Positions 775 through 62,618 are shown, counted from the stretch's first letter. The stretch is 64,000 nt of DNA from Eledone cirrhosa (GCA_964016885.1 OZ024749.1:47306001-47370000); one strand, 5' to 3'. The notes: a model not told the origin generated them from the letters alone. Program-made: numbers and translations.

Positions 775-1010
775 AATCACATGAATCAAAGTTCTGTTCA
801 AACCATTTATTAGCTTACAATTGTTTCGTACAAACCGAGGTTTGGTGTCTTCGGAGCAACATTTCAATGATTGTTTACATACATGACCTCCTTTCCAACA
901 CAAGAGACATACAGAAACATATGTATATATCGATGCACAGTGGGGTGACATCCATCATAATATTTTACCATGTAAATTTACATTCAAAATTTAAAATCAT
1001 ATTAAAAGAA
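775..1010 (-). mobile_element. Family A non-coding repeat (pseudo-LTR/retrozyme-like) with HHR-like motif
   Basis: Closely matches 29998-30232 and is related to 26976-27135. Minus strand reads gct-CCGAAGA-caccaaac ctcg gtttgtac-GAAA-caattg-TA-agc-t-AATAAA. Confidence 0.75.
813..857 (-). ncRNA. Minimal type I hammerhead-like motif (CCGAAGA core variant)
   Basis: Core boxes, stem II hairpin, palindromic stem III CAATTG, UA cleavage context and 3-bp stem I (gct/agc), folded by eye. Confidence 0.55.
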
Positions 1011-1351
1011 AATTAAAACAAAATTAAAGTTAAAATACAACATCGGCAGTTTACGAAGATAATGCAAGAGGATAGTTTGAAGTAGTTAGTGTATGCTATA
1101 GTTAAAGCACAATAGGTAAAGAACAACACGCTGTAATAATCTAACCTAATACATCAAGCTTCCAATACTGAATCATCGTGAATTATGTGAAGAACATATA
1201 ATCTATATATTACGTTTCCTGGATTGTGAAAATGGTGGTGTATACGAAAACCTTAACATTATTTTACTTCTCATTTTTAATATTTCACTGCACACAAGCT
1301 TCTTTATCATACATAAAAAATACTTTACCAGTACAACTCCCCGTGTAACTA

Positions 1352-1663
1352 TTGCATACACTAACTACTTCAAACTATCCTCTTGCATTATCTTTCGGAA
1401 ATAAAAAAATAAGATACTCCACTTCGCTCGCGGGCTACATCACATCACTAAATGACTTAAACATCAGCTTCTCCACGCACTGGGATATTGTCGGAAGGGC
1501 TGCACCGTACGACTTCAAGTGGAAATGCGATCTTTGCCTCATGGAGCTCCACCACATCATAACTGCACCCCACAAGCTCATCAACAGCAGAGCTGATACA
1601 GCGATAAGTTGTACACATCGCTTTACAATATCCTGCTTCAGATTGGTTAAGGATGAGGAGTGA
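1352..1663 (+). pseudogene. 5'-truncated C-terminal part of the GIY-YIG endonuclease of a Penelope-like retroelement
   Basis: Translation SF.N....STSLAGYI..L.D.NI.F...W.IVGRA.PY....KCDLCLME...I.....LINSR.D....C.HR matches the recalled PLE endonuclease C-terminal pattern (SF..ST.LS.YIW.LK...W.I..RA.PY..C.LCL.EK..LN.R.E..C.H). Homology starts near 1391. Confidence 0.8.
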
Positions 1664-2033
1664 AACCGTGCACCGGACCTCCCTGCAACAAATCTCAACA
1701 CCCCGGCAGGCACGCGCTGCAAAATAACATCCAGGAAACTATCCTTGCATACCGGACCCAGCCTCAAACGACTCAGACAAACAGATGCAGCAAAAAAAAA
1801 ACTCTCAAAATAAGCGTTGATTACATGCGTATCGACAATGGTAAGGTTGTAACATCATCTCGTAGCAGATAAAAAAAATGTCCGGGAAAGACTGCCCTAA
1901 CACCGTCCAGAGTTACCTCCATTGACCTGCTGCAAAATCAAAACAAGCTATTTTTGCAAGCAATGTACCTTGACTTAGATTTAACCCCAACAACTCTTTC
2001 CGAGCAATGTAAGGAACACTTTTGATTATCTAT

Positions 2034-2073
2034 GCCCTTGAGATGCCCAATCGGGCGAAACGTACGTAGGTGG
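2034..2073 (+). ncRNA. Minimal hammerhead-like motif in the PLE 3' UTR (degenerate first box)
   Basis: gcc-CTTGAGA-t-GCCC aatc GGGC-GAAA-CGTACG-TA-ggt: perfect 4-bp stem II, palindromic stem III; first box deviates from CUGANGA. Confidence 0.6.
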
Positions 2074-2520
2074 TGTTTTAAATAAACATGTTTTAACGGT
2101 CTATTCTCCGATTTCTTACTTTACCACGTGCTTACGCTCTGCTAATTCTCTAACCCACTAAATATTAACACTTCGAATATTTAATACTGCCGGCAATTGT
2201 ATCGAGTACCTTTGGCATACGCTACTTGGCAAATAACTATATTTATCACCTATCCTCCCCGTTTTTTTTCTTCTCTCGATACGTAAATACTGTATATATA
2301 TATATATATATATATATATATATATATATATATATATATATATATATATATAGATAGATAGATAGACAGATATATATATATGTATAGTAAAGAGTTAAAC
2401 AGATTCAATAAGTACATCAAGTAAGGAGTTTTACAGTAGATCGGAGCACCCTACGGTGGATATTTTCCAGAGTTATTAATATTAATTCAAATATTAACAA
2501 AATATGTGATCAATTAAATT

Positions 2521-2580
2521 TTATTATACATATTTCAGAGGTACTGAATCAAGTTCAACAGTACGTCCTCATCAGAAAAA
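2521..2580 (-). ncRNA. Hammerhead-like motif (family B, left arm)
   Basis: Minus strand: CTGATGA-ggac gtactg...cagtac ctct-GAAA-tatg-TA-taataa. Confidence 0.6.
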
Positions 2581-2672
2581 ATAAAATGATACATGACATA
2601 CCCTGACATGTATCTATAACTTGATTACATCTTAACCATCTAACACGTCAGGGAATATCATGTATCATTTTA

Positions 2673-2733
2673 TTTTATCTGATGAGGACGTAGGGTTGAA
2701 CATGATTCAGTACCTCTGAAATATGTATAGTAA
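2673..2733 (+). ncRNA. Hammerhead-like motif (family B, right arm)
   Basis: CTGATGA at 2679-2685, GAAA at 2718-2721, then tatg-TA. Confidence 0.58.
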
Positions 2734-59247: not shown

Positions 59248-59777
59248 TATATATGTGTATATATATATATATATGTGTATATATATATATATATATATGT
59301 ATATATATATATATATATATGTATATATATATATATATATATATATATATGTATCTATATATATATATATAAATATATATATATATATATATATATATAT
59401 ATATATATATATATGTATATATATATATATATGTATATATGTATGTATATATATATATATATGTATATATATATATATATGTATATATATATATATATGT
59501 ATATATATATATATATGTATATGTATATGTATATGTATATATATATATATATATATGTATATGTATATATATATATATATATATATATATATATATATAT
59601 ATATATATATATATATATATATATATATATGTATATATATATACAGATATATATATGTATATATGTATATATATGTATATATGTATATATATATATATAT
59701 ATATATATATATATATATATATATATATATATATATATATATATATATATATATATATATGTATATATATATATATA
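59248..59777. repeat. Interrupted (TA)n microsatellite
   Basis: Direct reading. Confidence 0.96.
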
Positions 59778-59936
59778 TGATGAACTGACTGGTTATAATT
59801 TTGTATTGGCGATCGAGTAACGCGAAAATAAGCGGATAGCGATCTCGAGACCTACCTGTTCAGAGAAACAATTGTCAGCAATGAGATTAAAAACCTGTTT
59901 TGTATAGCAAACCGTCTCACTCTTCTATCCTGATTT
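59778..59936 (+). mobile_element. (TA)n-embedded island starting at an HHR-like first box
   Basis: TGATGA-a-ctga...tcag-a-GAAA-CAATTG-TC-agc (59778-59879), then ATTAAA. Confidence 0.5.
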
Positions 59937-59983
59937 ATATATATATATATATATATATATATATATATATATATATATATATA

Positions 59984-60498
59984 TAGTGTATTTTCCAATA
60001 CGCTATATGCTTAATTAAAAGCATTTCGAAGATCTTACGCTATTGCTTTAGAGTAGTGACAGTCTCACTTACTTTACATTTTCAGCAAACAGGAGAGCTA
60101 AAGCTGACAGAGCTCTGTTTCGTAATTTTTGGTACTTATCAAATCTAAAGTTCTCCATTTGTTTGCTGCAAATCATGAATGTTTGATTCTTATATAATTC
60201 TAGTAATAATAATGAACTGATTATACAGAGCGGTTGACGGTCAAGCAAAATTGAAAATTAGAATTGGTGCTCTGAAATGTACTTATCTTTGAAAAGTACC
60301 AACAAGTAAGAAACAGAGTTATGTCAACTTTTTTCTCCCTGTTTGCTGAAGGTTTAATGTATGTGAGACTGTCACTACTCTAAAACAATAGCGTAAGGTC
60401 TTCGAAATGCTTTTTAATTAAGCATACAGTGTATTGAAAAATAGACTATATATACATTCATATATACGTCGCTATTTCAGTGCACCAATTCTAATTTG
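59984..60498. mobile_element. Family G fold-back element with degenerate HHRs and tail
   Basis: Arms 59984-60143 and 60288-60448. Minus strand TTGATAA-gtac..ttac-GAAA-CAGAGCTCTG-TC-ag. Tail 60449-60498. Confidence 0.83.
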
Positions 60499-61017
60499 AT
60501 ATATATATATATATATATATATATATATATATATATATATATATATATATATATATATATATATATATATATAAACAAGGTTTAGCAAATAATGAAAAAG
60601 TTTCAAATTAAATTTTAAAAAATTGACATTACCTACTATAGTTACCTTTACCGATCGGTTTCGAATCGCAAAATTAAACGGAGGCCATACGGCCTTCGTT
60701 GCAAAGAAAGATTCTCGTAAGAAGGTTCTTTTCATTCGAAGAATATAACATTTTTGAATTTAAATTACGAACTAGCGCTATCCAAAACTGTTCCCGAGAT
60801 GAGAGTGAATGAAGTGGAATCAATTTTTTCAAGGGCCGAAGTAAAGATAGAGGCAGAGGGAGGTAGGTCAACATGCCGCAACTATCACTAGCAGCAGTCG
60901 GAACGACCAAATTTGCTTCTCAACAATAGAGTAGAATTGTAATAATAGGATGTGTGTTCCTTCACGCATATATATGTATATATATATATATATATATATA
61001 TATATATATATATATAT

Positions 61018-61950
61018 ATCACAGAGATACAATATGTTTGTGAAGTTTGCCGACTTATCAAGACGATACCTCATTTAGAATTTCAAAACACATCCGTAGG
61101 ACGCGAGATAGAATCCCGAAAGGCGGAGGGGAGTTAATAAGGTGATACAGCTGTCAAGAAACAGAGCTAAGCCTCTTACAACCAAGAAAACATACCACAA
61201 AGGCGGAGGATGTACTTATATCAAAGCCGTAGGAGAGATGGCTAGGATGGCGAGAAGTATGATTTTATGAAAGGTATCCAGCAATCACTACACTTCAATA
61301 GTTACTCTACCAGAGGGAGTTATAAGCTAATGTATCTTCTTTCTTTATAATGCATTATATAGATCTAATACTGTATCAATCTAATCCATTCGGGTTATTT
61401 TGTCCCAGTTATCCATAGAGCAACAACGGTGGAGGTTGGCACCACAAATTCAGGGATATATGTGGATATATTCATGTATATGTATGTGTCCGCATGAATT
61501 TGTGTATTCCTTTATATTGTTTATAACTCCCTATGGTAGAGTAACCATTGAAGTGTAGTGACTGCTGGAAAGCTATCATTACTCATACTTCTCGCCATCC
61601 TAGCCATCTCTTCTACGGCTTTGATATAAGTACTCCCTCCGCCTTTGTGCTATTTTTTCTTGGTTGTAAGAGGCTTAGCTCTGTTTCTTGACCACTGTAT
61701 CACGTGAGTGATTCCCCATCCGCCTTTTGGGATTCTATATCACTTCCTACGGATGCGTTTTGAAACTCTAAATGAGGTATCCTCTTGATATGTCGGCAAA
61801 TCTCACACACATACGGTATCTCTGTGATGCAGTGTTTTTGCATAATATGCCACAACACTACGTAGTCGAGGAGTAATAAAGGAACTTGGGTATGGTATTT
61901 ATTATTAATTATATCTAATGTGTTTTTCTTTCTTTATAATGTATTATATA
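61018..61950. mobile_element. Family H fold-back element (~310-bp arms) with tail
   Basis: Arms 61018-61326 and 61521-61828; tail 61829-61950 containing AATAAA; (TA)n flanks. Confidence 0.87.
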
Positions 61951-62420
61951 TATATATATATATATATATATATACGTGTATATATATATATATATATATA
62001 TATATATATATATATATATATATATATATATATATATATATACGTGTATATATATATATATATATATATATATATATATATATATATATATATATATATA
62101 TATACGTGTATATATATATATATATATATATATATATATATACGTGTATATATATATATATATATATATACGTGTATATATATATATATATATATATATA
62201 TATATATATATATATATATACGTGTATATATATATATATATATATATATATATACGTGTATATATATATATATATATATATATATATATATATATATATA
62301 TACGTGTATATATATATATATATATATATATATATATATATATATATATATATATATATATATATATATATATATATATATATATATACGAGTATATATA
62401 TATATATATATATATATATA
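61945..62420. repeat. (TA)n with recurrent CGTG interruptions
   Basis: Direct reading. Confidence 0.95.
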
Positions 62421-62618
62421 GGAACCAGTAAGACCCCGACAGCTGAGCTCAAGCCGTTTCGACGGCTAATTCTGGACTGAGTCCAGAATTAGCCGTCGAA
62501 ACGGCTTGAGCTCAGCTGTCGGGGTCTTACTGGTTCCTATTACCCACTCTACTACCTCAAGTATTGAGTACTTTGGTGCGTTATGGTCCACCTGGTTCCT
62601 TACCACATTTCCTTCGTT
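62418..62618 (+). mobile_element. Family E hairpin element (perfect 61-bp arms, 1-nt loop, tail)
   Basis: Palindrome 62418-62540, tail to 62618. Confidence 0.92.

Follow-up and report, generated by a model that had tools for sequence, protein, structure and literature searches.

Microsatellite-embedded fold-backs in Eledone cirrhosa: truncated 3' ends of Penelope-like elements and retrozyme-like tandem units

Results

The 64-kb stretch of the Eledone cirrhosa genome analysed here (the window; 47,306,001-47,370,000 of OZ024749.1, our G000:C9, in the 3.0-Gb assembly GCA_964016885.1) has 30% GC, contains about 7.7 kb of (TA)n and carries, over some 7.2 kb, nine families of repeats with hammerhead-like ribozyme motifs. 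Six of them (A-F) are truncated 3' ends, or pseudo-long terminal repeats (pseudo-LTRs), of reverse transcriptase (RT)-encoding Penelope-like elements (PLEs) present in the same genome. Two more (G and H) fit non-LTR retrozymes, and the ninth (N) is itself a PLE. A first-pass annotation made from the sequence alone had listed A-H as eight groups of fold-back elements embedded in dinucleotide tracts and had read them as a non-autonomous PLE or retrozyme system. All eight groups lie at or near the positions it gave, between dinucleotide tracts, and each recurs in the window and genome-wide, where a first-look search returned 2320 candidates for A, 2080 for B, 1977 for C, 1629 for D, 597 for E, 4090 for F, 2018 for G and 1276 for H. 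The suggested association with (TA)n is borne out by 654 element 3' ends mapped in the window and in loci fetched from the rest of the same genome (these loci carry L-numbers, such as L030 or L358): at least three TA repeats directly follow 519 of the ends (79%), as against 14-17% of random positions. The stems are wholly different between families except for one region common to B and C, which had been taken as related.

Each of the nine families has two fixed 3' ends, bimodal in distribution and 47-164 nt apart, which we call the long end and the short end; the interval that they bound is the PLE tail. The arms form head-to-head inverted structures with outward-facing hammerhead-like motifs, as had been proposed. 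Family A is represented by a minus-strand arm with its short end beside (AG)n (774..1104; motif at 813-857, with a CCGAAGA core and GAAA-CAATTG-TA), by more pieces of its 3' untranslated region (UTR) that are rearranged where A joins N (1124..1394, +), by an older arm with a short end (26984..27140, +) and by a fold-back made of a long-end arm (-) and a short-end arm (+) at 29840..30405. Family N, absent from the first-pass list, was reached through a 104-aa frame at 1349-1663; its copy at 1391..2292 (+) is a 5'-truncated PLE in which the C-terminus of a GIY-YIG frame (to 1663) is followed by the 3' UTR, a decayed U3-A8 hammerhead at about 2036-2070 and a long end at (TA)n. The B fold-back (2388..2785) joins a long-end arm (-) to a short-end arm (+), with CTGATGA cores at 2575(-) and 2679(+). 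Family C contributes one short-plus-short fold-back (5786..6314, core at 5882(-)), an exception to the pairing rule described below, two partial C-like end pieces (33750..34108, +) and a short-plus-long fold-back (58057..58382).

The D fold-back at 16544..16699 has a short-end arm that starts from a G and an initiator-like A and holds a complete U4A hammerhead-like motif, its long arm being tail only; two neighbouring D fold-backs occupy 42729..43120, and an older long-end arm 45784..46062 (-). Family E forms a long-plus-short fold-back with its apex at the initiator site (22118..22308) and two young short-plus-long fold-backs, at 36461..36665, which begins within the ribozyme at G plus initiator A, and at 62415..62617; a single long-end arm lies at 30887..31037 (+), its true start being 30887 and not 30790. 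Family F has one short-plus-long fold-back (35300..35777, core CTGACGA at 35490(-)). Three sites that had been listed under F, at 5474, 30523 and 45588, turned out to be end fragments without a ribozyme: short-end fragments at 5473..5509 (-) and 45587..45666 (-), and a tail fragment at 30552..30624 (+), in front of which a short-end piece in inverted orientation begins at about 30523. The copy placed in F at 16070 belongs to a sister family, F2 (16076..16515, +; locus L340), the 3' end of a second Neptune-like PLE whose short end is in common with F. Finally, G is present as a fold-back of an approximately 320-nt tandem unit devoid of an open reading frame (ORF) (59963..60497; U3-A8 core TTGATAA, GAAA-CAGAGCTCTG-TC), and H as an inverted structure of an ORF-less tandem unit of about 587 nt whose hammerhead has decayed in this copy (61015..61950).

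The proposed Penelope-like origin is confirmed by copies in which the arms continue into RT/GIY-YIG frames. For A, four loci out of 30 (L030, L022, L019, L016) have the C-terminus of the endonuclease (EN) at a distance of about 1.5 kb upstream, and L346 and L354 add to the link. ORF links were likewise found for B (L259/L263, L349), C (L174), D (L005, L069, with whole pseudo-LTR-ORF-pseudo-LTR units in L358 and L359), E (L328, L332, L334, L347) and F, which has a 451-aa frame in L081. Family N retains an open 927-aa RT/GIY-YIG frame flanked by direct (tandem) and inverted pseudo-LTRs; the frames of D and E are collinear but broken, and those of A, B and C partial. The D and N units measure about 3.3 kb. 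A Pfam search of three PLE frames, N included, gave no family match, and the RT identity of N rests on a YRDD motif and on homologs carrying PF00078/PF26215. The description as non-autonomous therefore fails for A, B, C, D, E and F, with their RT-encoding parents, and holds for G and H only. Nor are A-F retrozymes, which have no coding parent and consist of short tandem units: all six run upstream into RT/EN frames.

Several features of the frames are those of the Hydra clade (Craig et al. 2021, PMC8557442): the C-terminal GIY-YIG domain, RWK (N) or RWR (D, E) together with DKT, and, by inspection in N, A, D, E and C, a CxCx5C linker and the CxxC and CxH pairs flanking E/N, without CCHH. In the single B copy the last C of the linker is changed. 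Judged by these motifs, which in A, B and C are the C-terminal ones, and not by a tree, A-E and N would match that clade. Family F appears Neptune-like by the motifs given in the same paper, since the 451 aa from which its partner is known include a CX4CxxC linker (CIDKKCIFC) before a C-terminal GIY-YIG, and the family has a minimal hammerhead; by eye, the YIG motif has Cys and His pairs around it. Beside D copies in L350 (5718-7391, +), a 557-aa open frame with RT and GIY-YIG, in which no DKG-type region was seen, belongs to another PLE type, Poseidon-like by eye. Parts of the endonuclease from four or more additional Hydra-like families were noticed in L052 (7148-8269), L054 (1710-1922), L035 (2271-2690), L090 (339-641) and L148 (280-669).

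The continuity with RT frames also disposes of the idea that these are miniature inverted-repeat transposable elements (MITEs) of a TA-targeting DNA transposon, with hammerhead-like motifs arising by chance. Inverted arms, TA flanks and the lack of an ORF in most window copies would suit such elements. On the other hand, the arms are of variable length, the apexes are not constant, the two ends are unequal, and the motif occurs in the sense orientation only; fixed size, matching terminal inverted repeats and a transposase partner are all wanting. We give this explanation a negligible probability, in agreement with the first-pass view that these are not MITEs.

A type I hammerhead-like motif is present at family level in all eight groups and in N. 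It had been recognized in A, B, C, F and G, correctly, and missed in D, E and H. The CUGANGA-like box then described applies to B, C and F; elsewhere it is often a variant, U4C in A, U4A in D and U3-A8 in E, G, H and N. The stem II of H is long. The commonest cores are CCGAAGA in A (35/49), CTGATGA in B (96/104) and C (50/66), CAGAAGA in D (59/64), TTGA(A/C)AA in E (40/47), CTGAAGA in F (47/55), TTGATAA in G (56/59) and H (31/35), and TTGAGAA in N (26/33). An AATAAA 3' of the cut was found by sequence inspection in A, B and C, as had been claimed, and in N, but not in F or G. A descriptor for type I hammerheads hit the expected place in seven of nine family references, none of the nine antisense strands and 3 of 2,700 shuffles; it was composed after the motifs had been seen, so the test is partly circular. 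H and N fail it, one because of a damaged reference copy and the other because of a 2-bp stem I, and the cores of both are conserved among copies. A check by covariance models, of the kind that had been suggested, came out negative: an Rfam search with 12 sources returned nothing at gathering score, and no hammerhead figured among the 150 matches listed, of 304, at E<=5. HDV-like (hepatitis delta virus) and twister folds for E were weighed by eye and dropped.

The two 3' ends are not combined at random in fold-backs. Pairs were counted on top-scoring or incidental copies within about 1 Mb; copies fetched with fold-back queries or with the E long arm were left out, here and in the count of extra G residues below, because such queries select their own shape. 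Among 73 classifiable head-to-head pairs (two more could not be classified), 69 join a long to a short end, three are long plus long and one is short plus short (p = 2e-16 against 50%), where independent choice of ends would give about half. The long-plus-long pairs all belong to the tandem families G and H, in which read-through was scored as long; with these families removed, the rule holds in 61 of 62 pairs. In L280 (433-1050) a D fold-back is repeated 4.3 times in tandem with a 144-bp unit, possibly the start of a minisatellite.

An empty-site test of the origin of the TA tracts found a matching site for 10 of 163 fold-backs, one of them informative. In this locus (L131, 1498-1911) a B fold-back lies in a tandem repeat, with (AT)6 on one side and (AT)19 on the other where the sister unit has (AT)4, a hint that insertion lengthens TA tracts. 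In three contig sets from one sample, which may be the assembly's own, joints converged on an E start at 22249 and no empty allele was seen.

At the other extremity, the 5' ends of E, D and B gather at one A, in TTAGTCC (E), TTAGTTT (D) and TCACT (B), respectively 41, 47 and 115 nt upstream of the ribozyme cut. These sequences resemble the initiator consensus. TCACT has been termed initiator-like (Inr-like) in another study (PMC3846280). E has the highest share of stopped copies, with 10 of 85 5' ends exactly at this A and 46 of 85 within 10 nt of it; the figures are 7 of 62 for D and 8 of 50 for B. The base preceding the A is T or C in the parents. In unselected copies a G takes its place in 17 cases out of 25; for other 5' ends the count is 32 of 213 (Fisher p = 5e-8). 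Genome-wide, 4,369 D matches diverge from the parent at -1, and G is the base found in 2,318 of these; 1,214 diverge at -2 (19 with G among the first 100 listed), and 13,631 read through. Among 100 matches listed for each family, G:A ratios counted by eye were 59:17 for D, 42:6 for E and 39:6 for B; C was found in 52 for E, partly the same G viewed from the opposite arm, and T in 55 for B. Extra 5' G residues from cap copying are known in LINE-1, and the stop base with its extra G likely records copying off a capped RNA start.

No clear pile-up of 5' ends at the ribozyme cut is seen in any family. A candidate pile-up in D was rejected (874 matches against 825 at a control position, genome-wide), as was the identity of the fixed E end with the cut, which in the parent lies downstream; in F a few ends do lie near the cut, mostly in query-biased copies. 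The E stop is located in a hairpin inside stem II. In L328 (1555-1670) the putative transcription start of E falls in the loop of the extended stem II of the ribozyme, so a 5' copy of this ribozyme would be incomplete.

Stopping is nearly absent from those D copies that extend into the 5' UTR or towards the ORF: one starts at G plus A and 338 read through. This speaks against a sequence-encoded pause. The site is thus not a general pause, and long cDNAs come from a template lacking that 5' end or jump cleanly across it. This bears on a mechanism in which fold-backs arise by snap-back, or self-priming, on an antisense template and the 5' pile-ups are RT pauses at RNA structure. Snap-back was suggested for rotifer PLEs (PMC3846280), apexes are frequently short palindromes, and the position of the E stop within a hairpin would suit pausing. 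Snap-back would nevertheless copy one end into both arms, which differ in nearly all pairs, and pausing should also halt long cDNAs and predicts no G. We consider this mechanism already disfavoured and very improbable.

G and H differ from the remaining families in that, past the long end, the sequence re-enters the start of its own unit, head to tail. The period is 311-321 nt for G (five loci; one of 226) and 587-595 nt for H (five loci, overlapping in part), and the longest ATG frames are 28 and 47 aa. Retrozymes are recognised by non-coding units arranged head to tail, every unit holding a type I hammerhead, and on this sequence evidence G and H fit the non-LTR kind.

Other repeats share the window. 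Four further TA-flanked families with GAAA-palindrome-UH motifs, found in 4-12 fetched loci (33310-33670, 42520-42700, 59780-59935, 60575-60975), are probably additional PLE ends that the first-pass list lacked. Three TA-flanked repeats (9250-9780, 36175-36430, 54370-54545) each recur in two or three other loci. An inverted pair of an unrelated repeat (29694-29781 and 30783-30863), with no match in other fetched loci, brackets a cluster of A, F and TA sequence. A SINE-like (short interspersed element) family of about 190 nt, independent of TA tracts, matches 97 of 360 other loci and has copies at 11152-11701, 39994-40189, 42325-42512, 46349-46732, 51885-52024 and 57030-57135. A decayed non-LTR retrotransposon, presumably of RTE type, spans 12489-15886, with AP (apurinic/apyrimidinic) endonuclease and RT matches (PF14529, PF00078); further copies are in L052 and L053.

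Discussion

The properties of these fold-backs suggest a way in which they could be made, and we think it probable that a dimeric enzyme twin-primes at the short and the long site in a TA tract, yielding mini fold-backs from capped RNA and full copies from circular or multimeric RNA. A single RT-endonuclease dimer would cleave the two strands of the TA tract, which is self-complementary, and one cDNA would begin at each of the two fixed RNA sites. Both cDNAs would copy the same upstream RNA, overlap and join head to head. If the template were a capped RNA starting at the initiator within the pseudo-LTR, both would run off the cap after 60-230 nt, copying the cap G and producing a mini fold-back. 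Long and tandem copies would likely derive from RNA lacking that 5' end, either a circle processed by the ribozyme or a read-through multimer; on it the cDNAs could cross the intact ribozyme and continue into the 3' UTR and the ORF. G and H are likely moved in trans by the enzymes of the same PLEs. TA tracts left between element ends could accept more insertions, which, judging from the nesting, would explain the crowding seen in the window.

The scarcity of G-started D copies that enter the ORF could be explained differently if solo pseudo-LTRs with a promoter gave transcripts that start at the initiator and are moved in trans, in the manner of SINEs, the short B, D and E copies being in effect non-autonomous. 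The young E subfamily speaks for this: 30 fetched copies are 99-100% identical, none extends upstream, and no ORF-linked parent was found for it, the E parents found matching the older subfamily. Yet the same DNA is expected if an ORF-bearing mRNA is primed close to its 5' end, given that the ATG lies downstream of both start sites, and short copies of D and of old-type E match autonomous parents. This SINE-like mode, close to the view of the first-pass annotation and compatible with the remainder of the twin-priming scheme, strikes us as somewhat unlikely. Alternatively, a strong-stop cDNA made from the capped 5' end might jump to the transcript's 3' end through the initiator-to-cut repeat, in LTR-like fashion, mini copies representing failed jumps. 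Such strand transfer would account for a strong-stop-like pile-up carrying an extra G and for copies that read through an intact ribozyme, and the repeat measures 41-115 nt. An ORF-copying cDNA should, however, meet the cap again and often stop, which 1 in 339 does, and the scheme demands near-perfect repeated jumps; we consider it improbable.

Several points count against the twin-priming scheme itself. The initiator pile-up is resolved in three of nine families and is not seen in A, C, F, G, H or N; a k-mer stop scan, noisy in itself, recovered D and B, missed the exact E site and gave no clean peak elsewhere. In B, local copies carry the extra G in 3 of 8 cases only, and uncapped RNA can also yield an extra G, through terminal dC addition. 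The 1:338 ratio in D speaks against the scheme in its simplest form, where the same capped mRNA would also template the full-length copies. Up to four of the D pairs belong to one tandem duplication (L280). A and D may cleave poorly, since each has a U4 variant, with the G10.1-C11.1 pair also missing from D. No sequence partner for G or H was found among the seven other families, nor an autonomous partner of shared sequence, and the clade assignments, being motif-based, belong on this side of the balance as well.

Much of this anatomy has precedents. Pairs of minimal hammerheads on opposite strands, 100-700 bp apart and "probably related to truncated PLEs", were already reported together with the U3-A8 variant (Cervera and De la Pena 2014, PMC4209133). 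The short palindromic stem III, the U3-A8 covariation and the many divergent families per genome described there are found again here. The present motifs depart from that description in the 4-5 bp stem III of D, E and G, in a stem II longer by 40-65 nt in E and H, and in the family-wide U4C (A) and U4A (D), not found in the available text of that paper; U4C is mentioned in a viroid, and U4A is absent, in the portion available of PMC3088659. PLEs of the Hydra clade, in molluscs too, have a pseudo-LTR hammerhead, insertion into (TA)n, an inverted 5'-truncated copy and a tail at one end (PMC8557442), which published accounts describe qualitatively as optional or often at one end. Compared with that clade, the units here are longer, with long 3' UTRs (published units are generally <3 kb, a tendency and not a rule), the tails measure 80-164 nt against 30-40 bp, the cores include U4C, U4A and U3-A8, and at least six high-copy families co-exist.

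G and H resemble non-LTR retrozymes (PMC7229834; bioRxiv 10.64898/2026.07.22.740005) in that their ORF-less units follow one another head to tail and contain a single type I hammerhead; units of this type have been argued to derive from pseudo-LTRs (bioRxiv 10.64898/2026.07.22.740005). They differ in inserting with PLE anatomy (two ends, an inverted copy, a TA target), and H exceeds the usual length of about 300 bp. An experimental parallel is the anole Poseidon element PAc (Frangieh et al. 2024, PMC11167929), which in vitro uses two internal RT start sites bounding a tail, cuts and extends both strands at an AT-rich target, and is predicted to act as a dimer; its insertion is independent of ribozyme cleavage. 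Long-plus-short pairing in fold-backs and run-off at a capped start are not reported in the accessible sections of that work, and both start sites here precede the ATG. How PLEs regenerate pseudo-LTRs and form inverted copies has been called an open question (PMC2377424, PMC8557442). An octopus repeat annotation, whose main text does not mention ribozymes, lists 31 recently active Penelope-like families (PMC13282606). In a full-text literature search covering open-licence papers and listings, we found neither the long-plus-short rule nor a G-marked stop in connection with Penelope. The element families described here are new, of known kinds, and may be listed in supplements of the cited papers; they come with a quantified signature that makes the open mechanistic question testable.

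For annotation, these results are of use in that standard tools see such families as MITE- or miRNA-hairpin-like (miRNA, microRNA). Their larger value is mechanistic: the long-plus-short rule, the stop marked by G at defined bases and the lack of this stop in copies continuing into the ORF yield exact predictions for cap analysis of gene expression (CAGE), for circular RNA sequencing and for the existing in vitro system. One could tentatively go further, though here we are more doubtful than confident, and envision two templates: a capped, uncleaved RNA that, primed twice close to its 5' end, gives dead-end mini fold-backs with a copied cap G, and a ribozyme-processed circle giving seamless full-length or tandem copies with a regenerated pseudo-LTR. 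If this were true, PLE transcription starts and twin priming would be recorded in the genome at base resolution, and PLE enzymes may lengthen TA tracts, feeding the microsatellite load.

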